In this document: piece by piece, positions 39,853 through 56,014 of the stretch
Numbering within the stretch: the stretch's first letter is position 1
Layout: each line of letters starts with the position of its first letter
NCBI GenBank assembly: GCA_016219325.1
Contig: JACRNH010000007.1
Coordinates: 1-58,482, forward strand
From: Candidatus Collierbacteria bacterium
GTDB taxonomy: Bacteria; Patescibacteriota; Microgenomatia; UBA1400; JACPES01
Direction of reading: 5' to 3'
Length of the DNA: 58,482 bases
Translations under genes and position numbers: made by a program
The notes under the pieces: generated by a model
The model's input: the letters and a program-made list of their open reading frames with translations, nothing else
What the model was told of the DNA's origin: nothing
Databases searched by the model: none

Positions 39853-39923
39853 AATCTAAATAATATTGTACTTTATCTTAACCTACTTAACAAGGGCTTC
39901 GTCTTTTTTTCTTCTTGACTTAA

Positions 39924-39932
39924 TGTGGAAAA
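39924..39932 (-). promoter_or_regulatory. DnaA box (TTTTCCACA, 1 mismatch) in the rpmH/dnaA divergent promoter region
   Basis: The plus strand reads TGTGGAAAA. Confidence 0.5.
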
Positions 39933-39953
39933 CTTTATAGATTGACGGCAGAT

Positions 39954-41342
39954 ATGAATACGGACGAGCTGTGGAAAACTGTTCAAGGAGACTTACAAGT
40001 GGAGCTGTCTGCCGGAAAATTTAGTTCCTTCATCTCTCAAACCAAATTGGCGAAAGTTGAAGAGAACGAAAACCGGGTTTTAGCCAGTCTGGCCGCAACC
40101 TCAAATTTTCATCGCAAGTGGATCGTGGACCATTGCGAAAAACAAATCAAAGACGCTTTTGAAAGGGCAACCCGCAAACATTGCGAATTACAATTTATTT
40201 TAACTACGCCCGATTCCAAGCCTTCCCTGCCATTGTCTTCGTATGGGCCTCTTTTTTCAGCAGAAGAAGACTCAAAAGTCTCATACCGCCGCAGCGCCGC
40301 CGCAGCTCATTTAAGACCCGATTTTACTTTTGAGCAATTTGCCGTTAGTTCCACCAACGAAATGGCCTATGCCGCCGCCCAGGCAGTCAGCCGGAATCCG
40401 GGCCAGGCCTATCATTTATTATTTCTGTTCGGCGGAGTGGGGGTGGGAAAGACTCACTTAATGCAGGGAATCGGCCACCGGATTCTGGAAGCCGACCCTC
40501 AAACAAAAGTTATGTATCGCAGCTCCGAGGAATTTACCAATGAAATCGTGGAAGCAATCCAATACAAAACCACCGCCGAATTCCGTAAAAGATACCGCTC
40601 GGTTAAAGCCCTGATGCTTGACGATATTCAGTTTATCGGCGGAAAAGACAAGGTTCAGGAAGAATTTTTCCATACTTTTAACGCCATTCATCAGGAAGGC
40701 GGCCAAATCGTGCTAACCAGCGACAAATTTCCCAGCGAAATTTTAGGGCTGGAAGCCAGATTAAAAAGCCGGTTTGAAGGCGGGCTGACTATTGATATTC
40801 AACAACCAAGCTTTGAATTAAGGGCTGCGATTGTATTAATTAAGGCTAAAGCGTGGGGAATAGATGTCCCAATGGATGCCGCCCAACTGATTGCAGGGAA
40901 TATCGAGAGCACCAGATTCCTGGAAGGAGTTCTAAAAAGGCTGCTGGCAGAAACCCAAATCCATGGAAACACTATCACTCTTGAGGTTGCCGAAAAAGTG
41001 GTTAAATCCTTCAAGACCAATATGCTCGAGGGGAACAACCAAATTCAAGCGTTAACCAAGGCCTCTCCCAATAGCGTAATTTCCGCCGTCTGCGAAGTGT
41101 TTGGGATTAAACCCGCCGAGATCAAAGGGGAAAGAAGACAAAAAGACTTGATTATTCCCCGTCATTTAGCTATGTATATCCTGAAAACCGAAGCCCAGCT
41201 GCCGCTGGTTTCTATCGGGCGGATTTTTGGAGGCAGAGACCATTCCACCGTAATTCACGCTACCGACAAAATAACCGCAGAATTAGCTTCAAACGCGCAC
41301 TTAAGAGGGGCCTTGGACGAAGTCAGAAAAAGAATGGTTTAA
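39954..41342 (+). CDS. dnaA: Chromosomal replication initiator DnaA
   Basis: FLFGGVGVGKTHLMQ (Walker A), LMLDDIQF (Walker B), and C-terminal domain IV GGRDHSTVIHA. Start trimmed to the ATG at 39954. Confidence 0.95.
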   Translation: MNTDELWKTVQGDLQVELSAGKFSSFISQTKLAKVEENENRVLASLAATSNFHRKWIVDHCEKQIKDAFERATRKHCELQFILTTPDSKPSLPLSSYGPLFSAEEDSKVSYRRSAAAAHLRPDFTFEQFAVSSTNEMAYAAAQAVSRNPGQAYHLLFLFGGVGVGKTHLMQGIGHRILEADPQTKVMYRSSEEFTNEIVEAIQYKTTAEFRKRYRSVKALMLDDIQFIGGKDKVQEEFFHTFNAIHQEGGQIVLTSDKFPSEILGLEARLKSRFEGGLTIDIQQPSFELRAAIVLIKAKAWGIDVPMDAAQLIAGNIESTRFLEGVLKRLLAETQIHGNTITLEVAEKVVKSFKTNMLEGNNQIQALTKASPNSVISAVCEVFGIKPAEIKGERRQKDLIIPRHLAMYILKTEAQLPLVSIGRIFGGRDHSTVIHATDKITAELASNAHLRGALDEVRKRMV

Positions 41343-41648
41343 GTTATCCACAACTCGTGGAAAACTATGTGGATAACCGGTGAATTAGTCGCGGAAAACT
41401 AGGAGAATATGTTGAAAAGAATCAGGATGTTTAAGAAGTTAACAATTTGTCCACTTATTTATAAACAAGTGTTGATAATCAAAAAGAGCAATATAAAGAG
41501 TATTTTTGAGGGTTCTCGACAAATCCGCATTCCTATATACTAGGACTAATTAATATAAGAAAAACGAAATAGAAAATAATGAGTAAAGAGTAATGAGTAA
41601 TGAAATGAAAATCATTACTTTCTACTTTCTACTCATTACTCATTAATA
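41343..41648. promoter_or_regulatory. Candidate oriC (DnaA-box cluster plus AT-rich stretch) between dnaA and dnaN
   Basis: Perfect TTATCCACA at 41344-41352 and its inverted copy TGTGGATAA at 41368-41376. Near-boxes at 41356-41364, 41447-41455 and 41470-41478. AT-rich run at 41521-41580. Confidence 0.65.
41577..41645. repeat. Imperfect hairpin built from GAGTAATGA / GTAGAAAGTA words, upstream of dnaN
   Basis: Left arm GAGTAAAGAGTAATGAGTAATGA, right arm TCATTACTTTCTACTTTCTACTCATTACTCATTA. Confidence 0.8.
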
Positions 41649-42731
41649 ATGAAAATATCGATTTTGCAGGAAAATCTATCTAAGGCGGCTTTATCAATTT
41701 CTAAAATTGTTTCATCAAAGCCGCAACTCCCAATTTTATCAAATATCCTAATAAAAGCAGAGAAAGGGAAAATTGTATTTTTGGCTACAGACCTGTCAAT
41801 TTCAATGGGCCTAACTGTTGGGGGCAAAATTGAAGAAGACGGAGAGGTCTCTGTCCCGGCCAAAGAATTTACGGCCCTGATTTCCCAATTGCCGGCAGGG
41901 AAAATTGATTTGTTTTCAGAGAAGGACTCCTTGTCGATTAAATCCGGCTCATTTAAGGCCCGGTTGGTCGGATTATCCGGCGGAGAGTTTCCCAGGGTTG
42001 ATCCGCCGTCAGGCAAAGGCCTTGAAATAAAAGCCGGAGACCTGTCTTTATTATTAAGGAGGACTCTATTCGTAACAGCCAAAGACGATTCCCGGCCGAT
42101 ATTGACCGGAATTAAATTAACCGGGCCGGAGAAGGGGGAAGTAAAAGCCATGGCGACAGACGGTTACAGGCTTAGTGTTGTAACTGTCCCCGCGGGCGGA
42201 TCCATTGACGCGGCGGCCGTTATCCCGGCAAAATTTTTGTCCGAAGCCGATAAATTTTCCGGGGATGCCGGGATTGGATTAAGTATTAACAAATCAGGCG
42301 AAGCCGGGGTCGCCGGAGAAGACGGTTGGCTTTCGGGGAGGACTCTGGCAGGAGAATTCCCCCCGGCCGAGAAAATAATCCCTGAGGAGTTTGAGTTGGA
42401 AATTTCCGTAAACCGCTCCGATCTGGAGAGGGCGGTTAAAATTGCGGTAATTTTTGCCCGGAGCGCTGCCAATATAATTAAATGGGAAATTAAGTCAGGG
42501 AAATTAAAAGTTTCGGCCAACTCTCCGCAAGTCGGAGAAAACGAGACTGTCCTGGATGTTGAAGGCAAGGGAGAGGGGGAGATCGCTTTCAACGGCCGCT
42601 ATCTTTTGGACTACCTGGGATCGACGGACGAAGAGAGCGTAAATTTCGACATGATAAATTCCTTAAAGCCCGGAGTCTTTAAGGCAAAAAATTATCTCCA
42701 TGTGATTATGCCGGTGAGGGTGCAAAAATAA
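41649..42731 (+). CDS. dnaN: DNA polymerase III beta sliding clamp
   Basis: Position after dnaA, 360 aa, three-domain clamp pattern (ATDGYRLS...). Confidence 0.92.
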   Translation: MKISILQENLSKAALSISKIVSSKPQLPILSNILIKAEKGKIVFLATDLSISMGLTVGGKIEEDGEVSVPAKEFTALISQLPAGKIDLFSEKDSLSIKSGSFKARLVGLSGGEFPRVDPPSGKGLEIKAGDLSLLLRRTLFVTAKDDSRPILTGIKLTGPEKGEVKAMATDGYRLSVVTVPAGGSIDAAAVIPAKFLSEADKFSGDAGIGLSINKSGEAGVAGEDGWLSGRTLAGEFPPAEKIIPEEFELEISVNRSDLERAVKIAVIFARSAANIIKWEIKSGKLKVSANSPQVGENETVLDVEGKGEGEIAFNGRYLLDYLGSTDEESVNFDMINSLKPGVFKAKNYLHVIMPVRVQK

Positions 42732-42732
42732 C

Positions 42733-42808
42733 GAGTAATGAATAGAAAGCAATGAGCAATGACTAACGTGTCCATTATTTTCTACTTTCTACTTTCTACT
42801 CATTATTT
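42733..42808. repeat. Imperfect hairpin of the same word family between the convergent dnaN and virB4-like genes
   Basis: GAGTAATGAATAGAAAGCAATGAGCAATGA ... CCATTATTTTCTACTTTCTACTTTCTACTCATTATT. Confidence 0.8.
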
Positions 42809-45800
42809 ATTTTTGGCTTCGTCTCAAAGATCGAAGTAAACTCGATTGACGGTTGGACGGCCGCCCCCGGAACCAGCGGCTTTTCATTGTTCTCTGTCTC
42901 TTGTTTCTTGTTTTCTGCTTTCTGCTCTCTACTTTCTACTTTCTGCGCCTTATTCACATCCACCTCAATCTCATTCAGGGCCAAGGGCTCGGACTCAACA
43001 GACTTTTGTGGTTTCCAATAATTGCTTTCCGGAGAAATCTTTTGTTCTCCAGTATCCATTCCGGCCTTAATGTCTAAGATCTCCTGTGGTTTGCTGGTAA
43101 TTAATTTATGCTCTTCTGGGCTGGCAATAACTTTGATGGCCACGTGATTTTGGCCGGCAAAGAAAAGCCCTTCTCCGATTTCTGATGCCATTAGCAATTG
43201 CTTTTCGCCGGCGGACAAATAAAAGGCTTCCTGTAGAGAATCGACGGCAGCAGCTGATTGTTTCATTAGGATTTGGATGCTGGAGTTGGTAACAATAGCT
43301 TTCCCATAATCAGAATGGAGGAAATCTTCAACGTCTTGAGTAATTGTTGTTAGCCCTAAATAATATTTCCGGGCCCGTTTGGCCATTGAGTATAGAAACA
43401 GGGCAGAGTCCTGATTTTTCATTAAATACCAGGCTTCGTCAACGATTAGCAGCCGGCGCTTTAATTGAGATTTAACTTTGGTCCAGATGAAGTCCAGAAT
43501 CATAAACATGGCTACGGGTCTAAGCTCATCTTCCAGATTTTTAATTCCGAAAACGATAAAATCAGCAGTCAGATTGACGTTGGTTTTTTGGTCTACCAAT
43601 CCGCGGAAACTGCCTTTGACAAATTTTTCCAGCCGGGCCGCCAGATTCGCGGCCTCCGGCGTTTCCATTCCGGCTAGGGCTTTATACAGATCTTCTAAAA
43701 GCGGAGGTTCGTTATTAAAAGTCTCCGGATTCGGGCTGATGCCATTGGCCTTATAAGCTGCGATTAAAGCCCTGTCTAAAATCGCTTCTTGGCTGGCGTC
43801 CATTGTCCCGAGCATTATTTTCATTAAAGCGTGGAGAGACAGCAGTTTTTGAGATAATTCGTTTTCGGAAGCGACGCCGGAAGATCCTCGAGCATAAGAG
43901 GGGAGGTCAAAAGGATTGATTTTAGCGGTTGAGGCAAAACTGAAATCAATATATTGGCCATTGACGGCATCTGACATCCGGTGATATTCGTCTTCCGGAT
44001 CAATCACGATAACTTCGGTGTCAAACATTAGAGAACGTAGAGCCTCAAGTTTGACGAAATAAGAATTATGGACAAACATTCCGCCATGACCGGCCAAGAA
44101 AACTCCATTGTCAACCTGTAGGTCGTAGACATATTTTTCATGGTGTTTTATTTTCTCAACAGAAACGATTGGATCCCAGAATAGGTTGGAATTAGCGAGT
44201 AGTTTTAATTGACTCAATTTTTCTTTGGCATGACGGATTTTCAGCTGGGTAGAACGATATTTTTGAGAGATATATCTGGCCGCTTTAAACAATGTCTGAT
44301 ATTTTGGATTTTTCGATTTTTCTAAAACGACAGCGTTCCATAATGATTTATCGTATTGTCGCATGGATTGGCCTTGTTGCTTGAAGGCCTCGTAAAGAAC
44401 GGAAGACAATAGCGACGCGGTTAGCGTTTTCCCTGAAACCGTTTGGTAGACAAAGAGGGCGTTTTGAGTCAATGGCGGATGTAAAAATCGTTTAATATTG
44501 CGCCAGGAGTCGCCGAGTTTTTCCCAAAGTAGGCGGTTAAATTGTTTGCTTTTTGATCCCAAACGGACAAGTCGGGAAACAGAGGGTAGTTCTCTTAATA
44601 GTTTTATGTATGGCGCGAGAGAGCGAAGCTGGTTGAGGCGAATCTCGCACAAAGAAATGGCATGTAAAAGTTGCTTTCTAGACGGATTATAGTTTCCATT
44701 TTTGATGTCAATAATGACTTGAGGAGTTTTGATTTCGGAAGTGGGATAGATAGATTTGGATAAATGTTTAAAAATTGGCTGCAGGCCGGGGACAGTATCG
44801 ACGTTAGTGTTACCGTTCCCGGTCCTCTGGAGTAAGAAAGCAAGTTTTTGGTTTTTGGTTTTAGTCAGGAAGCCGATTTTATCGGCAAATTTTTGAATTT
44901 GATCTTTTCCGGAAATGGTTATCTGAAAATAGGTGTTTTTGGTTTGTTTTTTGGTGTTGATGGCCGCTTTTCTCTTGGAATGGATTCTGGCGATAATTCC
45001 AAATCTTAACAAGATATAGGCCATATCAGAGGCAAGGTCTTTAGATTTAGTAGTGGCGGCGACTTCATGATTTTCAACTCCGCCGTCGCCCTCATAATAC
45101 GCGCGGAGATATTGGGCGATTTGATCGTTAGAGAGTGAAAAAATTCTTGGAGGAATTCGTTTTTCGCCGGATTTACCGCCGGCGCCATCGGCAATTACTT
45201 TTGTCGCGAAATCCTTCCCAGAAGAAATGCCGATCCGTTTTCCTCCAGAGCGGAGAAGATAATGTTTAATTTTAAGCGCGTTAAAAGAGTCTTTTATAAT
45301 CGAGAGAACAGCCGGATCTGTATTGAAAATTCGGACGAATTTTTGATAAATAAGCCCTTCGCTGGTAATTAACCCAAGTAAAGTTAGATACTCTTGAGAA
45401 AGAGAAAAATTGGATGCAGGCTTAGGAATAAAACGAGGGAGGGGAACGCATTCGCCAGCGGCGACAGCTTCGGCTCGTATGGTGCGGATTTTCCCGTTTC
45501 TCATAATAATCATTTGGTGATCCGGAGTTACGGTAATTTCGCGGCCGCTTTTCGTGCTGATTTTGTAAATTTTCCGGCGTTTATTGAAAGTTTTTCTAGC
45601 TGCTATCTCAACGTTTGCCCAGATCGGTTTTTGATTTTGATCGTAGGTGAGGACTTGAAGTTTAGGGTTGACGACTCCATCAGACTCGTTGCTAAATGTT
45701 ACGACTTTTTTTTGAGACATCAGATTATTGATAAGCTGCCCGATTTCGCAGATTTTGACCTCACCAGTATTGTGTCTAACGATAACTTTTGACTGATACA

Positions 45801-46614
45801 TCAGGCATTTTCCAGCTCCAGATTTTGCGAACACGACCATGTTGGCATTCTCTCTGGAAAAGCGGTCAAACACAACCAGGCTGTCATTATGCTCGTTGAT
45901 TCCGTATAAAATTCCTTCATTGGCCGAAAGCTCACTTGAGGTAAACGGAAAAGTTGTTGCCAGAGAAGTGGTGTCCATATTCCTGGTGATATTCAAAAAG
46001 TCCTGTCCCAAGGGTTGAGTGGTTTTGAAGGCCTGCTCCATTACAAATGACGCCGGTTTGGCGATAATTAATAGCGACCCCAGCGTGGATTGAATTTGTT
46101 TGGTAATATGATTTAATTCTTCTTCGTTGTCCGCCCCGATAGTTACGTATAGGCCAAACTGATAGAAGCGCTCCGAGCCTTTTGCCAATTGTTCCTGCAG
46201 GGCTTTGGCGTCTTCGAGCTTAACTTGAGTATCAATATTGGCAATCCGGCCCCGTTGCATATCGGAGTTTATCTCGGCTTCCATTTCTGTAATTTTCCGG
46301 CGCAGGTTTTCCAAAACTCCTTTGCCTTCAACCGGGTAAATAAACATTGAGACATCCAGCGAATGGTCAAAGTTGATAAGCGGCGACAGCCAGTTGGCGG
46401 CCACAAACCGCGGATATCCGGCCACAAACAGAGTCCTAACCAAGCGGTTGCCGATTTTGAGATTGGTAAAATCTACTTCAATCGCGTCCGGGGCCAAGAT
46501 GTCCTGGATAGTGGTAATTCCCTGGGCAAACTGGGTAACCGGTGAAAATTCCTTGGATTTTGGATCCTCGGACTTCTTTGGTTTAAACGGATTCACTAAA
46601 AACGGGATGTTCAT
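42796..46614 (-). CDS. virB4: VirB4/TraC/TrsE-family T4SS ATPase precursor containing an intein
   Basis: Walker A FAKSGAGK is interrupted at aa 270. After aa 850 come SYFVKLEAL..., Walker B RLLIVDEAWY, ARKYYLGLTTITQ and the C-terminal VirB4 pattern. Extein length is 691 aa. Confidence 0.85.
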   Translation of the reverse strand: MNIPFLVNPFKPKKSEDPKSKEFSPVTQFAQGITTIQDILAPDAIEVDFTNLKIGNRLVRTLFVAGYPRFVAANWLSPLINFDHSLDVSMFIYPVEGKGVLENLRRKITEMEAEINSDMQRGRIANIDTQVKLEDAKALQEQLAKGSERFYQFGLYVTIGADNEEELNHITKQIQSTLGSLLIIAKPASFVMEQAFKTTQPLGQDFLNITRNMDTTSLATTFPFTSSELSANEGILYGINEHNDSLVVFDRFSRENANMVVFAKSGAGKCLMYQSKVIVRHNTGEVKICEIGQLINNLMSQKKVVTFSNESDGVVNPKLQVLTYDQNQKPIWANVEIAARKTFNKRRKIYKISTKSGREITVTPDHQMIIMRNGKIRTIRAEAVAAGECVPLPRFIPKPASNFSLSQEYLTLLGLITSEGLIYQKFVRIFNTDPAVLSIIKDSFNALKIKHYLLRSGGKRIGISSGKDFATKVIADGAGGKSGEKRIPPRIFSLSNDQIAQYLRAYYEGDGGVENHEVAATTKSKDLASDMAYILLRFGIIARIHSKRKAAINTKKQTKNTYFQITISGKDQIQKFADKIGFLTKTKNQKLAFLLQRTGNGNTNVDTVPGLQPIFKHLSKSIYPTSEIKTPQVIIDIKNGNYNPSRKQLLHAISLCEIRLNQLRSLAPYIKLLRELPSVSRLVRLGSKSKQFNRLLWEKLGDSWRNIKRFLHPPLTQNALFVYQTVSGKTLTASLLSSVLYEAFKQQGQSMRQYDKSLWNAVVLEKSKNPKYQTLFKAARYISQKYRSTQLKIRHAKEKLSQLKLLANSNLFWDPIVSVEKIKHHEKYVYDLQVDNGVFLAGHGGMFVHNSYFVKLEALRSLMFDTEVIVIDPEDEYHRMSDAVNGQYIDFSFASTAKINPFDLPSYARGSSGVASENELSQKLLSLHALMKIMLGTMDASQEAILDRALIAAYKANGISPNPETFNNEPPLLEDLYKALAGMETPEAANLAARLEKFVKGSFRGLVDQKTNVNLTADFIVFGIKNLEDELRPVAMFMILDFIWTKVKSQLKRRLLIVDEAWYLMKNQDSALFLYSMAKRARKYYLGLTTITQDVEDFLHSDYGKAIVTNSSIQILMKQSAAAVDSLQEAFYLSAGEKQLLMASEIGEGLFFAGQNHVAIKVIASPEEHKLITSKPQEILDIKAGMDTGEQKISPESNYWKPQKSVESEPLALNEIEVDVNKAQKVESREQKAENKKQETENNEKPLVPGAAVQPSIEFTSIFETKPKINNE
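44065..45807 (-). mobile_element. 581-aa intein with a LAGLIDADG homing-endonuclease domain, inserted in the VirB4 P-loop
   Basis: Starts with Cys (GAGK|CLMYQSKVIV). Block B is TVTPDHQM. LAGLIDADG motifs are LLGLITSEG and YLRAYYEGDGG. Ends ...GMFVHN|S, with Ser as the +1 extein residue. Excision restores GKSGAGKS. Confidence 0.85.
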
Positions 46615-46645
46615 TGTTTCTTGTTCATTGTTTCTTGCTCATTGG
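46610..46645. repeat. Tandem 14-nt repeat TTCATTGTTTCTTG x2 plus a partial unit, at the junction of two T4SS genes
   Basis: Read directly. Encodes the NEQETMNKKQ tail of the upstream ORF and carries the virB4 start codon. Confidence 0.85.
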
Positions 46646-47315
46646 TTTTTATAATCGGTTCTACCAAAGGAGCGGTTAAGTTGACGGTGTCGATCTCCGG
46701 GGCGGCGTAGCCTGGATTATAAGTTCGGTATAAAAGAGATAATAGTTCTTTATTGGTTAATTGTCTCGCGGTCAGGCCGATTCTCTCCAACTGTTTGACG
46801 ACGTGATCTCTTTTTGGGCCTAAGGAAACCTGGGCCTTTTTAACGATTTCAGTTAGCGGAGCAGGGAGCCGGTTTTGATTGGCAACAGCCAGCCCCAGAG
46901 ATTTAACAGAACCTAGCTCCAGCGACGAGAAGGGCAATATTATATAAAACTTTTTATCCAAAACATTTCGGCGTTGGACGGTATCGGCCACAAATTGGCG
47001 GTAAGACTCAATCCATGACCGCTTGGTCGGAGACATTTGTTTTTTAGCGGCCGCCGCCAGCAACCCTAAATACGCGCTGATGTCTTTTCTTTCGGAGCGG
47101 ATTAAAATTTGAACCGGGAAATTCAGTGAATTGAGGAGGGCGGCGTAAGCGTAAATAATCGCGTCCTGCTCCTCCTGCGACAGTAGGCCGAAATTTACCG
47201 CCGAAGTTTCAATCACCATGGCGGCGGAACCGTTTTTCAATATAACCAGATTTTCCAGGATATCATGAATTGGAAGATGGTCTTGAGTGGTAGAAAGGAT
47301 TGGTTGGACAGACAT
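46611..47315 (-). CDS. T4SS-associated protein resembling the N-terminal region of VirB4/TraC
   Basis: LPIHDILENLVILKNGSAAMVIETSAVNFGLLSQEEQDAIIYAYAALLNSLNFPVQILI matches the pattern at the N-terminus of Gram-positive VirB4-like ATPases. No P-loop. Start trimmed to the ATG at 47315. Confidence 0.45.
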   Translation of the reverse strand: MSVQPILSTTQDHLPIHDILENLVILKNGSAAMVIETSAVNFGLLSQEEQDAIIYAYAALLNSLNFPVQILIRSERKDISAYLGLLAAAAKKQMSPTKRSWIESYRQFVADTVQRRNVLDKKFYIILPFSSLELGSVKSLGLAVANQNRLPAPLTEIVKKAQVSLGPKRDHVVKQLERIGLTARQLTNKELLSLLYRTYNPGYAAPEIDTVNLTAPLVEPIIKTNEQETMNKKQ

Positions 47316-47320
47316 TTTAT

Positions 47321-47397
47321 AATGAGTAATGAGTAGGAAGTAGAAAGTAATGAAATTATTTTGCATTACTCATTATTTTCTACTCATTGTTTTCTGT
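47321..47397. repeat. Imperfect hairpin of the GAGTAATGA / GTAGAAAGTA word family
   Basis: AATGAGTAATGAGTAGGAAGTAGAAAGTAATGA - loop - ATTACTCATTATTTTCTACTCATTGTTTTCTG. Lies between the PrgI-like and 234-aa genes. Confidence 0.8.
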
Positions 47398-48516
47398 TTT
47401 TTTAGCTCGGATTTCAATCGGCGGAATTACAAACCCTCCGGCTTCAATTTTAAGTATATCAAAGGTAAGGTTGTCTTTTTCCGTAATAACCTCATAGCTT
47501 CCGTTTTCAAGAGGAGTGGCGATGGCAAAATGGCCGAGTTTGTTAGATTTTACGGCTCTGACGGGCAAATGATCACTAAGTCTTCTGATTTCAATAATCG
47601 CTCCGTCGGCTATTTGTCCGTCTGCGGCGACTACTATTCCGGCTAAAATATTCGGGGAAGTGGGAGCCGACGGCAAAATTAAAGATTGCATAACGGTGGC
47701 GGAGATTGCGCCTGCTCCGGACTTACTCTCTTGAGTATTGAAGGCGGGGAGTTTAATTGAAGACAACCCAAGCCTTTCTAGTTGAGCCGATTCCTCTTTA
47801 AATTTCTTTTCTGTCGTTGGAGCAATAGGAACGTCTCCGATCGCCACGGGTTGATTTTTGGGAATTTGGAGGTGGTGGGGGGGGAGAGTAATTTCCCCGC
47901 GCAGAACAGCTTCCGGATCATCAGGAGGATCTAAAGGATGAAGTACGGGAATTAAATCAGAAAGATGATGTCCGGAATCCACCGGCCTAATTTGGGGAAA
48001 AGTTGTTTGATTAATTATTTGCTGGGATACGGTTACTTCAGAAAACATTTGCGGTACAGCCGCCATTTTTTTATCCCAATCAGACAACAATGGATCTTCA
48101 GCAGTTTCTTCAGCGATTTTATAGGCTGAAAGTAAAGATTCTAATTTTGCGGTGGGCATCTTTATTGCCGAGTCTAAAACCGATTTTGATTCCGTTGGTT
48201 TGGCCTGAAAACTTAAAATGTCATCGCGGGAAGTTTTTTTCCACACAAAAATAGTCGGGCGGTAAATCGCCCGGAAAAAAGCGATGAACCACTGGTCCAA
48301 AGGTCGGTCCTCCAAAGGCATAAACGCCAGGCCGAAACCCAGCATGACTGCCAAAATTATCAGAGGCCAGCGGATAAAAGCGGGAAGATCCATTCCCCAA
48401 ATCAGCCAGCCGGCCACGACTCCGCCGGCCAATTCAAGGAATTGTTTTAGGGTCATATCGCCGACCAGGCGGAATTGATAACTAGTTACATTCTGTGGTA
48501 TTGGATGCTCAATCAC
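47380..48516 (-). CDS. PrgI-family (VirB3-analogue) membrane protein with an extracellular beta-sandwich C-terminal region
   Basis: IPQNVTSYQFRLVGDMTLKQFLELAGGVVAG...two TM...MPLEDRPLDQWFIAFFRAIYRP fits the PrgI family layout. The C-terminus GIVVAADGQIADGAIIEI...SNKLGHFAI...ENGSYEV looks CarboxypepD_reg-like. Confidence 0.6.
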   Translation of the reverse strand: MIEHPIPQNVTSYQFRLVGDMTLKQFLELAGGVVAGWLIWGMDLPAFIRWPLIILAVMLGFGLAFMPLEDRPLDQWFIAFFRAIYRPTIFVWKKTSRDDILSFQAKPTESKSVLDSAIKMPTAKLESLLSAYKIAEETAEDPLLSDWDKKMAAVPQMFSEVTVSQQIINQTTFPQIRPVDSGHHLSDLIPVLHPLDPPDDPEAVLRGEITLPPHHLQIPKNQPVAIGDVPIAPTTEKKFKEESAQLERLGLSSIKLPAFNTQESKSGAGAISATVMQSLILPSAPTSPNILAGIVVAADGQIADGAIIEIRRLSDHLPVRAVKSNKLGHFAIATPLENGSYEVITEKDNLTFDILKIEAGGFVIPPIEIRAKKTENNE

Positions 48517-48657: not shown

Positions 48658-48686
48658 TTGACTTTTGTATGACATTGTTATACGAT
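48658..48686 (+). promoter_or_regulatory. Sigma70-type promoter TTGACT-N17-TACGAT, 8 nt before the ATG
   Basis: -35 at 48658-48663, -10 at 48681-48686, ATG at 48695. Confidence 0.45.
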
Positions 48687-48694
48687 TGAAAAGA

Positions 48695-48964
48695 ATGACT
48701 TTTGTTGTCAAAGAAGTTGTTTGGGACGATTTTAATATCGCGCACATTGGAGAGTACGATGTTAGCGTTGATGAAGTAGAGGAGGTTTGCAACGGAAAAG
48801 TTGAGGCATATTTGGGCCACTCGGATCGGTTTATGATTATCGGCAAAACTGTGGCCGGTAGGATTTTATCAATCGTATTGGCGCAAAAATCAAAAGGGGT
48901 AGTTTATCCGGTAACCGCCAGAGATGCCAGCCGGAAAGAAAGGGGGTGGATTAAAAATGACTAA
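48695..48964 (+). CDS. BrnT-like (DUF497) toxin
   Basis: VVWDDFNIAHIGEYDVSVDEVEEV...RILSIVL...VYPVTARDASRKER fits the DUF497 pattern. Start trimmed to the ATG at 48695. Confidence 0.6.
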   Translation: MTFVVKEVVWDDFNIAHIGEYDVSVDEVEEVCNGKVEAYLGHSDRFMIIGKTVAGRILSIVLAQKSKGVVYPVTARDASRKERGWIKND

Positions 48965-49217
48965 AAAACATTTACCAAAATTTAAATCTAACCAAGAAGA
49001 AGCCCGATTTTGGGACAGTCATGACATGACCGATTATTTTGACCGGAACAAAAAAGTAGTGCTGGATTTTTCCGGCGCCAAAAAAAAGAAAGAGAGTATT
49101 TTAACCGTCAGATTACAGCCGGAGATAAAAATGAGGCTGGGGGCGGTAGCGGAAGAAATGGGAATTCAGACCTCAACTTTGGCCAGAATGTGGTTGGTGG
49201 AGAAATTGAGAGGTTAG
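48957..49217 (+). CDS. BrnA-like CopG/RHH antitoxin
   Basis: FKSNQEEARFWDSHDMTDYFD...ILTVRLQPEIKMRLGAVAEEMGIQTSTLARMWLVEKL. GGGGGTGG SD-like motif upstream. Overlaps the toxin stop by 8 nt. Confidence 0.6.
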   Translation: MTKKHLPKFKSNQEEARFWDSHDMTDYFDRNKKVVLDFSGAKKKKESILTVRLQPEIKMRLGAVAEEMGIQTSTLARMWLVEKLRG

Positions 49218-49378: not shown

Positions 49379-50425
49379 TTATTGTGCTGAATCAGCGAGA
49401 GCTGGAAGATAGAGCAGGGCAGAGACATTTTTACCATTACGAAATTGAGCGTGTCCGGTTAGAATAAAAATCGGCTGGAGGAATAATTGATTTTGAGAAA
49501 ACTCCTGATAATAGCCAATACTAGCACCTTCAACTACAATTTTATTGATTTCGTTTTCGCCCAACGAGGACAAATCAATATTTCCGTTATCTAAAGATAA
49601 AACTTTTGCATCTTTAAGACTGATTAAAAGTGTAGAGAAGGTTTTTAATTGACGCTCTCCTTCTATTTCAAGAATATTGGTTTGGTCAATATACGCCGAG
49701 ACAACAGAATTCTCTCTATTCAGCGTTACATTAATAGTCCCAACATCAGGAGTGGCGTTGACGACAGGGTATTGGCTTAATATTTCTTTAAAACGGATCT
49801 CAGCCACGCCTGCGTTTTCTTTCTCAGCCTCAATCAGCCCTTCTTCTACCATATTCAGATAACGGACCTGAGAAGAAGAGGAGATCTCTTCTGTTATTAA
49901 TCCGGTTCCGACAAGAAAACGTTTTGCCTTAGAAACAATTTCCTGTTCGCTTTTAAACGGACCTTTTCTTGTTTCTGGTTGAGATTGAGCTCTTTTATAG
50001 TCAATAATGCGGAGATTGGCAACAATTCTTAGATTTCCTATTTTGGTGTCTGACCAAATGTAAACTGGACCAAACCTAACGTCGTTAAGCGATTGCGGAT
50101 CATCGGAAAATCCGAAGAAGAAAGCAATTTTCACGCTCTCCTCAAGAGATAGGTTTGATTGACCAAGAGAATAAACAGGGAGCGAGGCCGGGATATTAAT
50201 ATCGCTTTTCTTTAATAAGGCCTCGATATTCAGTGATCCTTTGCTGTAATTTGACTCTATTATTGGTTTATGGACAGGCGGTTTCTGAAAAGAAGGTCTT
50301 TTTTGAAACGCTTTATTTAATATCAGCATTACGATAGTTATTCCAAGAGCTGCGATAACAACGATAGTAAGAGTTCTCTTTTTGGACATTTGTATTAATG
50401 TACTCATGGGATATTGATATTGCAA
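49379..50425 (-). CDS. Membrane-anchored secreted protein of the T4SS-like cluster
   Basis: 348-aa ORF with an N-terminal TM (RTLTIVVIAALGITIVMLIL). The likely true start is an internal ATG near 50389. No recognised motif. Confidence 0.5.
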   Translation of the reverse strand: MQYQYPMSTLIQMSKKRTLTIVVIAALGITIVMLILNKAFQKRPSFQKPPVHKPIIESNYSKGSLNIEALLKKSDINIPASLPVYSLGQSNLSLEESVKIAFFFGFSDDPQSLNDVRFGPVYIWSDTKIGNLRIVANLRIIDYKRAQSQPETRKGPFKSEQEIVSKAKRFLVGTGLITEEISSSSQVRYLNMVEEGLIEAEKENAGVAEIRFKEILSQYPVVNATPDVGTINVTLNRENSVVSAYIDQTNILEIEGERQLKTFSTLLISLKDAKVLSLDNGNIDLSSLGENEINKIVVEGASIGYYQEFSQNQLFLQPIFILTGHAQFRNGKNVSALLYLPALADSAQ

Positions 50426-53403
50426 TTACCAACACAGCCAATAGGAACAGTTATTGGGATATATGGTTTTATCATATGTGGCGGAGGATCTTGTCTGGAC
50501 TTGTAATTGCCACCAACATCTCTAAATTCATAATGAAGATGAGGACCAGAGCTTCTTCCTGTCGATCCGACAACGCCAATAACGTCGCCGCCTTTTACCG
50601 ATTGTCCTTCTGCAACAGATAAGACAGACATATGAACATAAACTGTTCGGAAGTTTCCACCGCAGCTATCTTTAATATGAACATAATTTGCGCCGTATCC
50701 GTCGACTCTCGCTTCGATAACTGTTCCCGGATGGGTTGCAATTACAACATTGTTTGACGTTACTGTCCCGGGAGGAGTGATGTCTAAAGCTTCTACATAA
50801 GGGCATTTGGCATTTGGGTCGTTGGCGGTCGGACAATTCGCGGGCTGGCTAGGGAGCGATGGGCCGTGAGTTGCCCATCCTCCCGGCCCTTGGGCGATAT
50901 AATATTTTTGCCCTCTTGAAATGTCGACAGGCCAGGCTTCCGCAGGACAACCCTGTAAAGAAATTCCACCAAATGGAGCATTTTCAGTCGGCACAAATAG
51001 TCCGGCGTTGGTGGTGGGCTGGACGAAAAAGACAGTGATAATTGCGCCTAAGGTGATGCCGGCAATTCCTGTGGCCGCAATTGTTGAACCAAGTCCGCCG
51101 ATTAAGCCGGGCGCTCCGAGAAGTGCGGCCATGTTTCCCAGCCCCAGCGCTCCTGATCCCAAAGCCGATCCGGCCCCCGCCAAAACATTTCCCAGCCCTC
51201 CGGCAGCTTGAATTCCAAGTCCGGTGGCAAACCCCAAACCGGCACCGATTGCTGTTCCGGCTCCGGGAAGGATTAATGTTCCGATCAGAGCTCCGCCGCC
51301 GGTGGAAAATGCCAGCCCTCCGAATTGGCCCAGAAGCCCAAATAATCCGGACAGCAAAGTTTGGCCAAAAAAGAATCCGCCGGCCAGAGCGGTGCCGATT
51401 CCTTCGCGGTTATTCCAGACAAACTGGCCGATGTCTCCAAGAATTGAAAGAGCGGTTATTACTCCGGCAACTTGGCCAACGACAGGAGCTGCTTGGGCTA
51501 TTAATGCGGCCGCGCCTTTGCCGACTGCCATCAAGCCTAGTTTTGTGGCCGCTTTGACGACGCCTTTTTTAGCCAACCAAGCTCCGGCTTTGGCCAAACC
51601 GGATTTAATTTGAGTTCCGGCCCAAGTTTTGGCATTATTAAATCCTGCGGATATAGCCGTTCCGACTGCTTTGAAAGGGCTGGCGGCGGCATTGCCTAAC
51701 TTTCCAAAACCTCCTCCGACAGTAGAAAAGAAATTAAAAATTGAATTAACGGCTTCCGATTGGACTCTTAATCCGGAAAACACGGCTTGAGCCGACGAAA
51801 ATATCCGGTTGACCGGCGGCAGGCGGTTTAAGTTATAGCGGACGGCTTTACCAATGTCTAAGGTCTGAATTATTGACCGCCAACTGTTTTGTAAGCCAAG
51901 ATTGATGGCGCGGAATTTTTCGCCGGACGATTGCATCTGATTTAATCCTGATTGAGCCGCGCCCAATTCTCTGTAGATAGGATTGTCAGGCGGAAGCGGC
52001 GGTTGAATCGGGATCCCGAAAATGGGTTTTCCGTTGGCCAGACTATTTAAATGCGCCTCAAGACTTTTTGGCGTGACTCCAGCCAATAACATTGTTACAT
52101 AATCGGGCGGTTGGCCTAATTGTTGAGATAGCCTGATTGTCAGGGCGGCGGCGTCTCCGGTTGAGAGTTTGTTGGCGCGGATGGCCGCGGACAATCTGAA
52201 AGGGAAAAGACCAGGATTTATCCGGGCCAGATTGATTAGAGAATTCTCGTCTATGGTTTCAGAAATTGAAGGATGATCAGAACTTTTGGCAAGAGTTAAA
52301 ATTGCAGGCCTAATGCCGTCTATTATTTCCTGCTCGGTTTCCGGAGTTGCTCCGCGGAGTACTTGTCTTAAAATCCGCAATTGTTGGTCAGGCCGGTCGT
52401 GGTATTTGGCCAAGGCTTCAGCCAGGCGCGGAGTTTGTTTTGTCTTCAGTGTTTGGCCATGTTTGGCTAAGGCGGCCTCGATTTCACCTTTGACGATATT
52501 TTCAGCGACATTTCTGTTTCTGGGAGAAGTTTTTTGTTCGGCTTGAAACGCTTTGGCGGCCGGATCGACTGTTTTGGCGGTTTCGTCGGCCAGATTTTTA
52601 GCGTCAGCCATGGCGTTTTTCCGGTCGGCCTTGGGAGTTTTTGCTAAAGCCACCGCCAAATTGCGGTCGCTTTTTAGATTTTTTTCCAATTGAGCGGAAA
52701 AATAGATGGCGGCATGAGACGGGTCGGCTATGCCGAGTTGATTGAGGGCTAAGGCCGTAATGGATTGATTGACAGCCAAATCAATTCTTTGAGCCAGAAA
52801 GCGGTTGACGGCTTCTTTCCCATAAATAGTTTGCAGGTCGCGGATATATGATGAATTGGTTAAAGTTGTAAATAAGCTTTTGGAAACGTTAACCCTCAAC
52901 AGTTGGGTGCGAATGCTGATTTCTTGGATTTGTTTGATTTGGGCTGCGAGTTGCATCGGCCGGCCAAGTTCTTGTTTTAATTTTTTAGTGGTTTTGGCTT
53001 GGGCCTCCAGTATGTCTTGGAGTTCCTGAAGCTTAGCCTTGGTCGGGACCACCGCGTCCATTGATTTTTCGGCTGGAGGAGGAGCCATTACAGCTTCCAG
53101 GCTCTTGCCCAATGTTTCAAGATGTTCTATTTTTAAGACGGATAAATCAGCAAAAAGTCCGTCGTCAAGAGGATTGTTTAATGCCCGGTTAAATTGGGAT
53201 AAATCCGCCAGCAATTGTTTAAAAAAAATAATTTGGCCGGCAACCGTAATTTGGGCGGTTAAATCCGGCCGGGGGGATTGAGCTAATATCTTTTTTAAGG
53301 CCTCAATTTCAGCTTTAACAGTTAATGGTTCAAACCAATCTCCAGAGCTTAATATCTGTCTGGCCGCGGCTAGCGCCTCCTGATCCGTTACGGTGGTTGC
53401 CAT
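50404..53403 (-). CDS. Large T4SS-associated membrane protein with a C-terminal M23/LytM-like peptidase domain
   Basis: 999 aa. About 550 aa of helical N-terminus, then a Gly/Ala-rich multi-TM block (aa about 560-790), then C-terminal GDVIGVVGSTGRSSGPHLHYEF (M23 HxH motif). The first HxxxD motif is not obvious. Confidence 0.65.
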   Translation of the reverse strand: MATTVTDQEALAAARQILSSGDWFEPLTVKAEIEALKKILAQSPRPDLTAQITVAGQIIFFKQLLADLSQFNRALNNPLDDGLFADLSVLKIEHLETLGKSLEAVMAPPPAEKSMDAVVPTKAKLQELQDILEAQAKTTKKLKQELGRPMQLAAQIKQIQEISIRTQLLRVNVSKSLFTTLTNSSYIRDLQTIYGKEAVNRFLAQRIDLAVNQSITALALNQLGIADPSHAAIYFSAQLEKNLKSDRNLAVALAKTPKADRKNAMADAKNLADETAKTVDPAAKAFQAEQKTSPRNRNVAENIVKGEIEAALAKHGQTLKTKQTPRLAEALAKYHDRPDQQLRILRQVLRGATPETEQEIIDGIRPAILTLAKSSDHPSISETIDENSLINLARINPGLFPFRLSAAIRANKLSTGDAAALTIRLSQQLGQPPDYVTMLLAGVTPKSLEAHLNSLANGKPIFGIPIQPPLPPDNPIYRELGAAQSGLNQMQSSGEKFRAINLGLQNSWRSIIQTLDIGKAVRYNLNRLPPVNRIFSSAQAVFSGLRVQSEAVNSIFNFFSTVGGGFGKLGNAAASPFKAVGTAISAGFNNAKTWAGTQIKSGLAKAGAWLAKKGVVKAATKLGLMAVGKGAAALIAQAAPVVGQVAGVITALSILGDIGQFVWNNREGIGTALAGGFFFGQTLLSGLFGLLGQFGGLAFSTGGGALIGTLILPGAGTAIGAGLGFATGLGIQAAGGLGNVLAGAGSALGSGALGLGNMAALLGAPGLIGGLGSTIAATGIAGITLGAIITVFFVQPTTNAGLFVPTENAPFGGISLQGCPAEAWPVDISRGQKYYIAQGPGGWATHGPSLPSQPANCPTANDPNAKCPYVEALDITPPGTVTSNNVVIATHPGTVIEARVDGYGANYVHIKDSCGGNFRTVYVHMSVLSVAEGQSVKGGDVIGVVGSTGRSSGPHLHYEFRDVGGNYKSRQDPPPHMIKPYIPITVPIGCVGNCNINIP

Positions 53404-54465: not shown

Positions 54466-54504
54466 TTGACACGATTCTATTTACTGCACATAATATGCAG
54501 TAAA
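54466..54504 (+). promoter_or_regulatory. Promoter TTGACA-N17-CATAAT with a 9-bp inverted repeat TTTACTGCA/TGCAGTAAA
   Basis: -35 at 54466-54471, -10 at 54489-54494, ATG at 54504. The inverted repeat at 54480-54504 brackets the -10. Confidence 0.55.
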
Positions 54505-55070
54505 TGGAAACGTATAATTTGGCTCAAGCTACTCAAATCCTGTTTACAACTCCGATTGCCGTCTTCTCTAGCGAATCGTTGGCCGCGACATTAAAAATAT
54601 CCAAGGAAAGGTCAGCGTTCTCTGTTATTTCCAGATTGCTAAAAAACGGTATTTTAGAAAAGGCAGGGAAAGATTGCTATATTCTTGCCCAAAAACCCGC
54701 CCATCAATTTTTAATCGCTAATTATTATTACAAGCCTTCTTATGTTTCATTTGAGTCAGCCCTCTCGCATTATGGAATTTTGTCTCAATTTCCGGTTGAG
54801 GTAACCAGCGCGACGCCGCTTAAAACAGCCAAATACTGCTCGAAAGATAAAATGTATTCTTATGCGCATCTAAAAAAAGATTTGTTTTGGGGTTATGATA
54901 AAAGCCAAGACGGATTTTTAATCGCCAGCCCGGAAAAAGCCGTCCTCGATCAGGCATATTTGGCCTCTAAAGGCCTAAAATCTTTTTCTAAAGACGAATT
55001 GGACTGGTCTCTGGTCGACAGAAAAAAGTTGTTAAATTACGCCAAAATGTATCCAGACCTTTCTCTATGA
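54504..55070 (+). CDS. abiEi: AbiEi-family antitoxin / transcriptional regulator (type IV TA)
   Basis: The N-terminal wHTH and PSYVSFESALSHYGILSQFP are typical of AbiEi. 4-nt overlap with the downstream NTase toxin gene. Confidence 0.75.
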   Translation: METYNLAQATQILFTTPIAVFSSESLAATLKISKERSAFSVISRLLKNGILEKAGKDCYILAQKPAHQFLIANYYYKPSYVSFESALSHYGILSQFPVEVTSATPLKTAKYCSKDKMYSYAHLKKDLFWGYDKSQDGFLIASPEKAVLDQAYLASKGLKSFSKDELDWSLVDRKKLLNYAKMYPDLSL

Positions 55071-55834
55071 TTACCTTGGTTCAGTTAAAATCATTTGCCA
55101 GGCAATATAAAACCAACGACGCCACGGTTTTTCGCGAATATTTACAGTTACTTTTTTTAAGCCGTCTTTATGGATATTCTGATAACCGGCAGATTGTTTT
55201 CAAGGGCGGGACAGCTATACATTTTATTTATAACGCTCCCCGATTTTCCGAAGATTTGGACTTTACTGTGGTCATGCCGGAAAAAGAATTTACACAGAGC
55301 TTAAAAAAAACTTTTGCAGCCCTGGAAAGCGAAGGCCAGATAAGTTTTAAGCAAAGGAAGACTTTAACCGGGAAAAGATTTTTGCTTACGGCGGCGCTTC
55401 CCGATTCGTCTCTAAAATCTTTTATTAATCTTGATTTTTCGTTCAGGGAAAAAGTTTTCGAATTTCAGTTCAGTTTTATCAAATCAGAATATCCAATATT
55501 ATTCACTTCGCAAGTTCCGCACATGTCTAAAAACGAAATTGTCGCTGACAAAATCAGGGCAATAATGCGGCGGAAAAAGGGAAGAGATATCTACGATTTA
55601 TGGTATTTATTGGCCCAAGGCGCGAGGGCGGACCAAAAATTGATTGCCGAAAAATTTAAATATTATGATGAAAAGTTTATTTTTAAAAAACTAATAGAAA
55701 GAATTGAAGAATTTCCAAAAACAAATTTTATAAACGACCTAAAGCCATTTGTTCAATTTCAAGAGCGCGAAAAATTGGGAGAACTGTTTGTTTACATTAT
55801 TGGATTTCTTAAACACGTTTCAACGTCTGCCTGA
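55067..55834 (+). CDS. abiEii: AbiEii/AbiGii-family nucleotidyltransferase toxin (DUF1814)
   Basis: FKGGTAIHFIYNAPRFSEDLDFT and RGRDIYDLWYL motifs. Confidence 0.85.
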   Translation: MITLVQLKSFARQYKTNDATVFREYLQLLFLSRLYGYSDNRQIVFKGGTAIHFIYNAPRFSEDLDFTVVMPEKEFTQSLKKTFAALESEGQISFKQRKTLTGKRFLLTAALPDSSLKSFINLDFSFREKVFEFQFSFIKSEYPILFTSQVPHMSKNEIVADKIRAIMRRKKGRDIYDLWYLLAQGARADQKLIAEKFKYYDEKFIFKKLIERIEEFPKTNFINDLKPFVQFQEREKLGELFVYIIGFLKHVSTSA

Positions 55835-55979
55835 TCTGTTAGGGTTGTTGCCATACAATTATCTTAACATTGTAGAGAAACCACACAAATTGTAGTTTGA
55901 TATTGGTGGGAATAATTAGGATAATTAAATTAGTCGAGAAGCCTTATTTCGATATAAATGCCTATTTTGTAAGGTTTAC

Positions 55980-56008
55980 TTGACAATAACAGTACTCTTA
56001 TGTAAGAT
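55980..56008 (+). promoter_or_regulatory. Sigma70-type promoter TTGACA-N17-TAAGAT, 6 nt before the ATG
   Basis: -35 at 55980-55985, -10 at 56003-56008, ATG at 56015. Confidence 0.55.
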
Positions 56009-56014
56009 AGTAAC

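Follow-up and report, generated by a model that had tools for sequence, protein, structure and literature searches.

The P-loops of ATPases are a preferred site of intein insertion, with DnaB, MCM, and RFC among the examples, and five inteins have been counted in VirB4 proteins of Firmicutes and Proteobacteria (Novikova et al. 2016, PMC4760082). In DnaB (site b), MCM (site a), RFC-S (site a), RecA/RadA, and V-ATPase A, the intein is inserted in the Walker A motif at GK↓[S/T/C] (arrows mark insertion junctions throughout), and the organisms that carry these P-loop inteins are Actinobacteria, Cyanobacteria, and Euryarchaeota. Among the inteins with solved structures, PI-PkoII (Tko Pol-2, 2cw7), PI-PfuI (1dq3), and TliVMA/PhoVMA (7qss, 7qst) consist of a Hint domain split by a double-motif LAGLIDADG endonuclease, and they also have accessory domains beyond these two components. 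Regarding the host protein, VirB4 is the signature ATPase of type IV secretion systems (T4SS). The T4SS of Patescibacteria is characterized by a monophyletic VirB4 clade related to MPF-FATA and is usually found without a relaxase; in Microgenomatia and Paceibacteria, its genes are often located beside dnaA/dnaN, and in Southlakia it is reported to be essential for epibiotic growth (PMC12102498). The word intein has no occurrence in that survey of Patescibacteria VirB4, and the literature searched contained no description of inteins in VirB4 proteins from the candidate phyla radiation (CPR). The present analysis concerns a 58,482-nt stretch of DNA from a Candidatus Collierbacteria bacterium (contig JACRNH010000007.1, assembly GCA_016219325.1), called the window below, in which the gene for a VirB4-like T4SS ATPase carries a 581-amino-acid (aa) in-frame insert that is almost certainly a bona fide intein.

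The insert shares with the solved archaeal inteins the Hint domain split by a double-motif LAGLIDADG endonuclease and the same catalytic grammar, and it shares with the other P-loop inteins the position of the insertion in Walker A. It differs from PI-PkoII, PI-PfuI, TliVMA, and PhoVMA in being just 11–18% identical to them over the structural alignments, and its host is a CPR VirB4 instead of a polymerase, a ribonucleotide reductase (RNR), or a V-ATPase. In addition, an all-alpha basic domain of approximately 200 aa follows the endonuclease and, taken alone, matches none of the solved inteins; the extra region of PI-PkoII, in contrast, precedes the endonuclease in the phmmer alignment. Compared with the other P-loop inteins, the window intein falls into a distinct clade with its own helical domain and a different host family, and the hosts of this clade are CPR bacteria and Micrarchaeota. 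The five VirB4 inteins counted previously (PMC4760082) have the same T4SS signature ATPase as the host and belong to other phyla, a distinction that is made by phylum and not by site or sequence. A LAGLIDADG intein in the P-loop of an ATPase is a textbook case, and nothing in the virB4 intein departs from known intein logic. The unusual features of the family are the helical domain, the occurrence of Ser, Cys, or Thr at position 1, the second insertion site in relatives, and the spread over CPR bacteria and Micrarchaeota; the family is sizeable and apparently undescribed.

The interrupted virB4 gene

The 1272-codon open reading frame (ORF) at 42796–46614 on the minus strand is intact, without stops or frameshifts. 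By translation, the insert comprises residues 270–850 of the 1272-aa product, which correspond to window 44065–45807 (minus strand). It begins with CLMYQS at residue 270 (window 45807–45805) and closes with GMFVHN at residues 845–850, the last codon region being 44067–44065. The insert splits the Walker A loop in frame between K269 and S851 (FAKSGAGK↓C...HN↓SYF); the N-terminal junction reads NMVVFAKSGAGK↓CLMYQSKVIV, and the C-terminal junction reads AGHGGMFVHN↓SYFVKLEALR. Excision of residues 270–850 restores FAKSGAGKSY, in which the loop AKSGAGKS fits the Walker A pattern [AG]xxxxGK[ST]. The gene is divided as follows.

42796..46614, minus strand: precursor ORF, VirB4-like T4SS ATPase plus intein, 1272 aa (conju_CD1110, P-loop_TraG)
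45808..46614, minus strand: N-extein, aa 1–269, ending in VVFAKSGAGK with the first seven Walker A residues (translation, alignment)
45418..45807, minus strand: Hint N-terminal splicing region, intein aa 1–130, with Cys1 (block A) and T94/H97 (block B) (TIGR01445 over aa 1–100)
44821..45417, minus strand: double-motif LAGLIDADG endonuclease domain, intein aa 131–329, also with the conserved Lys254 (LAGLIDADG_3 at E 4e-20, Foldseek)
44194..44820, minus strand: all-alpha basic domain, intein aa 330–538 (AlphaFold)
44065..44193, minus strand: Hint C-terminal splicing region, intein aa 539–581, blocks F and G, VYDLQVDNGVFLAGHGGMFVHN, with the His580-Asn581 end (translation, phmmer against PDB)
42796..44064, minus strand: C-extein, aa 851–1272 plus stop codon, starting at Ser+1 with SYFVKLE and containing Walker B LLIVDEAW (translation, alignment)

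A preliminary description of this DNA, made from the sequence and its translations, had placed a LAGLIDADG intein of 581 aa at 44065–45807, and these coordinates and this length were reproduced exactly on retranslation. All of the intein motifs that it listed are found in the translation, namely the splicing motifs Cys1, block B (T94-P-D-H97), H580-N581, and Ser+1 (S851), together with the endonuclease motifs LLGLITSEG (acidic residue E150) and YLRAYYEGDGG (acidic residue D241). Its statement that a canonical Walker A remains after excision is correct with respect to the pattern and contains a slip of one letter, as the loop is AKSGAGKS and not GKSGAGKS. The nucleophile at position 1, the TxxH motif, and the His-Asn end followed by a +1 nucleophile are the sequence features of a class-1 intein. 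The intein has a lower GC content than the exteins (41.4% vs 45.2%; at third codon positions, 41.8% vs 49.6%), and the two also differ in charge, the intein being basic and the extein acidic. Scanning the window for Rfam families and tRNAs gave no match, and no RNA-level element, such as a group I or II intron, accounts for the insert. When the intein was used as a tblastn query against the window, no second copy of it was found.

The profile hidden Markov models for inteins and LAGLIDADG endonucleases all matched the insert above their cut-offs: Pfam Intein_splicing at 61 bits (cut-off 35.8, E 1.4e-16), Pfam LAGLIDADG_3 at 68 bits (cut-off 22.5, E 6.6e-19), and NCBIfam TIGR01445 (intein_Nterm) at 43 bits (cut-off 24.5). 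Strong partial matches were also obtained to the intein parts of the NCBIfam models for RNA polymerase A'', RFC, DnaB, IF-2, GyrA, and RNR, with E values of 1e-18 to 1e-36 for the intein-containing RFC, DnaB, IF-2, and RNA polymerase A'' models. In a phmmer search against PDB sequences, PI-PkoII (2cw7) was matched at E 6.6e-17 in three segments corresponding to Hint-N, the endonuclease, and Hint-C, and several mini-inteins matched as well. The intein was further modelled with AlphaFold2 from a 19-sequence homologue alignment, giving a mean predicted local distance difference test score (pLDDT) of 89.9 and a predicted TM-score (pTM) of 0.80, with no segment below a pLDDT of 50. The model contains a beta-rich region (aa 1–124), two alpha-beta-beta-alpha-beta-beta-alpha halves (aa 138–310), approximately 12 helices (aa 343–538), and a beta-rich C-terminal region (aa 542–580). 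A Foldseek comparison of the model with the PDB returned TliVMA (7qss, E 2e-20), PI-PfuI (1dq3, E 1e-19), and PI-PkoII (2cw7, E 1e-18), followed by I-DmoI, I-Tsp061I, and PI-SceI (probability 1.00), and the mini-inteins of TFIIB, RadA, and CDC21 were matched with a root-mean-square deviation of 1.7–2.5 Å. A Hint fold assembled from the N- and C-terminal regions is present according to the model, the Foldseek matches, and the Pfam Intein_splicing match, and the two acidic-ended helices within a pseudo-dimeric fold are the features of a monomeric two-motif LAGLIDADG endonuclease. For annotation, virB4 should be regarded as one functional gene with an intein, and not as a fusion or as a "LAGLIDADG endonuclease", the label that several database relatives carry.

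Empty alleles and the intein family

Both empty and occupied alleles of the insertion site were found in related genomes. A search with the spliced extein yielded at least 8000 VirB4 homologues, all with matches at E<1e-30, and the nearest relatives, the best 120 of these at least 8000, are all empty: they are 597–783 aa long, 64–80% identical to the extein, and without intein Pfam domains. The intein-bearing exteins, in contrast, are just 42–66% identical to the window extein, compared with 68–80% for its nearest, empty relatives. When intein-free homologues were aligned to the precursor, K269 directly abutted S851, with 0 aa between them, in eight of eight, which places the junction at the P-loop; Walker A and Walker B are invariant in these homologues. 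The closest homologue (P0073) is encoded on a 21-kb contig (L002) and represents a syntenic empty allele. The gene order of L002, AbiEii, large protein, toxin-antitoxin pair, PrgI, TraC-like, VirB4, dnaN, dnaA, rnpA, and yidC, is the same as that in the window. By BLASTN, window 43070–44062 corresponds to L002 11542–10550 (83% nt identity), and window 45808–46535 corresponds to L002 10548–9820 (85% nt identity). As the ends of the two blocks in L002 are adjacent (10550 and 10548), window 44065–45807 is a clean 1743-bp insertion, and no intein-like sequence is present in L002 at the DNA or protein level. This patchy occurrence, in which the nearest exteins are empty, is in keeping with a homing cycle of gain and loss.

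In a word-indexed search, the intein matched 19 close clusters at 35–59% identity; those with a source name are of Patescibacteria type, except for one partial sequence labelled Nitrospirota, and the next tier of relatives consists of DnaB and MCM inteins at approximately 25% identity. An intein-only profile scan of one genome per GTDB species detected relatives in 273 genomes, and the best 79 loci were kept. The family comparison covers 76 members, namely 75 loci plus the window, for which the host ORFs were extracted and both junctions were mapped. The intein occupies the window site (site a, GxGK↓S[YF]...) in 70 members and lies five codons upstream in the other six. T94, H97, D562, H580, and N581 are invariant in all 76 members, and Ser+1 is present in all; of the endonuclease residues, E150 is retained by 74 members, D241 likewise by 74, and K254 by 75. 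Position 1 is Ser in 71 members, Cys in three (window included), and Thr in two. The insert had initially been considered unusually long, a view that the family does not support, as its inteins are 522–679 aa long (median 603), and the window intein (581 aa) falls below this median. In 42 of the 76 members, aa 131 is followed by an extra insertion of 25 aa or more. The best genome matches for the intein are from Candidatus Amesbacteria, with 60% identity, which points to a Microgenomatia-like CPR bacterium as the source of the window; since the closest relative is just 60% identical, synonymous sites are saturated.

The CPR hosts are Amesbacteria, Gottesmanbacteria, Woesebacteria, Collierbacteria, and Kaiserbacteria, as well as Uhrbacteria, Magasanikbacteria, Nealsonbacteria, Saccharibacteria, and Paceibacterota. 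The family is also present in at least four genomes of Micrarchaeota (DPANN; loci L078–L081), in which it interrupts a HerA/DUF87-type ATPase at the same junction, GSGK↓S...HN↓SY. These copies suggest an exchange between CPR bacteria and those archaea.

The six inteins at the upstream position (site b; L010, L011, L014, L015, L026, and L068, proteins P0003 and P0004) are 42–45% identical to the window intein and form a coherent group, sharing 62% identity among themselves and no more than 50% with any site-a intein. Their junctions, VVFGK↓SLASWEP...FVHN↓SG[SG]GKSY, have the same GK↓S context as the window-site junctions, GxGK↓S...HN↓SY, and the homing site appears to have shifted by 15 bp between the two positions. 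The members with Thr1 are from Woesebacteria (L069, GAGK↓TVEKNEPV) and Paceibacterales (L042, GSGK↓TLDYHSPV), and their other splicing residues are intact. Domain-wise identities to the window intein are uneven in two relatives: P0002 shares 44% identity over the LAGLIDADG domain and 74–86% over the helical domain, and for P0001 the values are 65% over the LAGLIDADG domain and 49% over the helical core. Such mosaic identities suggest recombination between intein lineages. The conserved accessory domain, the Ser1, Cys1, and Thr1 variants, the two sites 15 bp apart, and the CPR and Micrarchaeota members are useful for studies on homing-site shifts and cross-domain transfer, and new tools for splicing or DNA cleavage by endonucleases may be obtained from the family.

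Proposed mechanism and alternative explanations

The insert in the VirB4 Walker A loop is very probably a canonical class-1 intein in which a LAGLIDADG homing endonuclease is embedded, spliced and homing according to a scheme that we infer from the conserved residues and established intein chemistry. Translation would give the 1272-aa precursor, in which the P-loop is split and which is presumably unable to bind ATP. An N-S acyl shift at Cys1, aided by T94 and H97 of block B, would generate a thioester that is attacked by Ser851 (+1); cyclization of Asn581, aided by His580, would then free the 581-aa intein, and an O-N shift would lead to a 691-aa VirB4 with an intact FAKSGAGKSY. The freed intein would act as a site-specific endonuclease that cuts intein-free virB4 near GGAGCTGGAAAA↓TCTTATTTC (the 60-bp restored, empty virB4 site is GTCGTGTTCGCAAAATCTGGAGCTGGAAAATCTTATTTCGTCAAACTTGAGGCTCTACGT), and the cut allele would receive the intein by double-strand-break repair. 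Homing into intein-free alleles would explain the sporadic distribution of the intein. The basic all-alpha domain would add DNA contacts for target recognition, as the accessory regions of PI-SceI and PI-PfuI do; this is its likeliest contribution and the least certain step of the scheme. The intein is quite likely to be splicing-competent, and its predicted homing endonuclease is probably active. In at least 76 intein-bearing species-level genomes, an oriC-adjacent signature T4SS ATPase would then need protein splicing before ATP binding, and this splicing requirement would be a natural single-point control or vulnerability of the T4SS.

Several observations weigh against this scheme. A scan of IMG/VR for a viral vector found no close copy on viral contigs; the matches are distant generic LAGLIDADG/Hint relatives with 22–39% identity, none of them over the helical domain. 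The identities of inteins and exteins are correlated across the loci (Spearman 0.71–0.73), implying that much of the spread of the family could be vertical or within-clade instead of resulting from frequent homing. Furthermore, a DNA-binding role of the helical domain would rest on its charge, position, and conservation, and the Foldseek and profile searches with this domain gave no significant match.

When aa 330–540 were modelled alone with AlphaFold, an all-alpha structure of approximately 12 helices was obtained (pLDDT 89.9, pTM 0.82). The helical domain has a net charge of +24 over 209 residues and is about as conserved as Hint-N (30–75% identity), with N333-T-N335-x-D337-x-x-P340, P375-S376, L407-P408, N424, L427, and W435 as the conserved positions. 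The Micrarchaeota members are without aa ~394–527 and keep aa ~341–393 and the last helix; as this short form keeps the flanking helices, the core of approximately 134 aa is inserted into what is otherwise a shorter linker region. When 1.84 billion representative proteins were searched exhaustively with phmmer, 13 relatives of the helical domain were obtained, and all nine that are long enough for a Pfam scan carry LAGLIDADG and intein-splicing domains. The preliminary description had pointed to approximately 200 aa without an obvious motif between the endonuclease and the C-terminal splicing block, and aa ~330–540 indeed have no credible Pfam match at E≤10, the scan returning noise alone (IKKbetaNEMObind, 0.044). 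No family was matched by more than two members when 20 diverse homologues were scanned against Pfam one by one. The fold was compared with PDB and BFVD structures, and a novel fold is not claimed: the best Foldseek match had an E value of 0.29 in the PDB (TM ≤0.24) and 0.49 in BFVD. No intein structure is among the top 50 PDB matches, and no similarity to the DNA recognition region of PI-SceI, the Stirrup of PI-PfuI, or the extra domains of PI-PkoII was found. A PDB profile search gave a weak likeness of a "PSR..L..I" helix to the winged helix-turn-helix of BirA (whole-sequence E 0.015, domain i-E 2) and otherwise coiled-coil noise; this likeness is a lead and is not used as evidence.

Accessory DNA-recognition regions are known in PI-SceI, and the Stirrup of PI-PfuI lies between the endonuclease and Hint-C. 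On the basis of its position, charge, conservation, and exclusivity to the intein, the helical domain is tentatively regarded as an extra DNA-recognition module, with a chance somewhat below even. A more far-reaching interpretation, which is unlikely, is that the domain is a new accessory module restricted to the CPR/Micrarchaeota VirB4/HerA-type P-loop intein family, being either a novel DNA-recognition fold that sets the target or a sensor that makes splicing conditional. If this were true, a DNA-recognition fold might help explain the two sites five codons apart, the two host ATPase families, and the two domains of life, and under either version the inteins would form a phylum-wide lineage, so far undescribed, that episymbiotic bacteria and archaea have exchanged.

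Among the alternatives to a canonical homing intein, the one that survives best is a conditional or domesticated intein, in which splicing regulated by, for example, the redox state of Cys1 or other cysteines, DNA, or a T4SS partner on the helical domain would serve as a post-translational switch of VirB4, so that the element would not be purely selfish. This is improbable. The insert does interrupt the catalytic P-loop of a protein reported to be essential for the epibiotic lifestyle (PMC12102498), and Novikova et al. have argued that selection may retain P-loop inteins (PMC4760082). The family persists over many CPR classes with conserved splicing residues, the conserved extra helical domain is found in no other context, and the correlated intein and extein identities suggest long co-residence. 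However, 74 of 76 members retain the active-site residues of the endonuclease, which indicates that mobility and not regulation is selected for, the empty state of the closest extein relatives and of the great majority of homologues indicates that the host does not need the intein, and no regulatory feature was identified.

A splicing-dead insertion, which would make this virB4 copy effectively a pseudogene or an inactive precursor, is more improbable still. Such a reading could appeal to Cys1, which is a minority state (3/76) in a mostly Ser1 family; among inteins generally, Cys1 is the commonest nucleophile. The 1272-codon frame is nevertheless intact, C1, T94, H97, D562, H580, N581, and S+1 are all present, the exteins are 83–85% identical at the nucleotide level to the empty allele with Walker A and B retained, and the folded model is of high confidence. 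An assembly chimera or mis-join that placed an intein-like gene inside virB4 has a negligible probability: although the window comes from a metagenome-type assembly and just one further copy was found, on a 19-kb Logan contig, this separate public contig encodes an identical protein of 1272 aa, the insert sits exactly in frame between the two halves of one P-loop, and homologous inteins interrupt the same P-loop in at least 76 separately deposited genome assemblies. A bacterial intein-like (BIL) or Hint-only domain was also considered and was rejected because His-Asn plus a +1 nucleophile are present.

The oriC-proximal T4SS locus

The host gene of the intein is a chromosomal, oriC-proximal VirB4-like ATPase of the Patescibacteria T4SS. 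The extein matches NCBIfam NF045971 (conju_CD1110, VirB4-like) at 358 bits (cut-off 325) and Pfam P-loop_TraG at 87.7 bits (cut-off 25.8, E 8e-25), and both Walker A (FAKSGAGKSY) and Walker B (LLIVDEAW) are intact in the virB4 product after removal of the intein. As in the T4SS loci described for Patescibacteria (PMC12102498), the neighbors in the window are PrgI/VirB3-like, TrsD/TraC-like, dnaN, and dnaA; the difference is that the window virB4 allele contains an intein, which is absent from the large majority of homologues. The module had been suggested to be under strong functional constraint because an intein resides in its ATPase. Going from an intein to strong constraint is an inference, and the constraint is supported independently by the exteins of more than 100 homologues, which are 64–80% identical, and by the essentiality reported in the literature (PMC12102498), not by the intein itself. 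The upstream T4SS genes are as follows.

46611..47366, minus strand: TrsD/TraC-like protein, 251 aa, upstream operon partner (precomputed Pfam match PF26593 TraC-like; syntenic in L002)
47380..48516, minus strand: PrgI/VirB3-like T4SS membrane protein, 378 aa (Pfam PrgI, E 1.4e-6, 29.2 bits vs cut-off 27)

A direct Pfam scan of the TraC-like ORF (46611–47366) gave no family at E≤0.01. The ATG of virB4 overlaps the stop codon of this upstream gene by 4 nt. On the other side, dnaN and dnaA are located directly downstream of virB4, the stop codon of which is approximately 65 nt from the end of dnaN. The likely oriC lies at window 39900–41650. Perfect DnaA boxes (TTATCCACA) are found in the dnaA-dnaN spacer at 41344–41352 (plus strand) and 41368–41376 (minus strand); one-mismatch boxes are located at 41470 in the same spacer and, near the start of dnaA, at 39924 and 39970. 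The cumulative GC skew reaches its minimum at approximately 38–40 kb.

Within the T4SS cluster and on the opposite strand, a BrnT-like toxin and a CopG/BrnA-like antitoxin are encoded at 48665–49217 (plus strand). The equivalent place in L002 (7003–7663) contains a PIN-domain toxin-antitoxin pair, as if one cassette had been exchanged for another while the position stayed fixed. The T4SS genes are adjoined by a gene (50404–53403, minus strand) whose 999-aa product carries an M23 peptidase domain at its C-terminus and by an overlapping 348-aa ORF without a Pfam match (49379–50425, minus strand). The positions of both genes are conserved in L002, and their products may be a cell-wall hydrolase and a membrane component of the T4SS, respectively. 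The cluster is flanked by 54504–57145 (plus strand), which comprises an AbiEii-type nucleotidyltransferase toxin (55067–55834) and, upstream of it, a partner ORF of 188 aa, as well as an AAA_14/DUF4143 ATPase (56015–57145); the AbiEii module is common to the window and L002.

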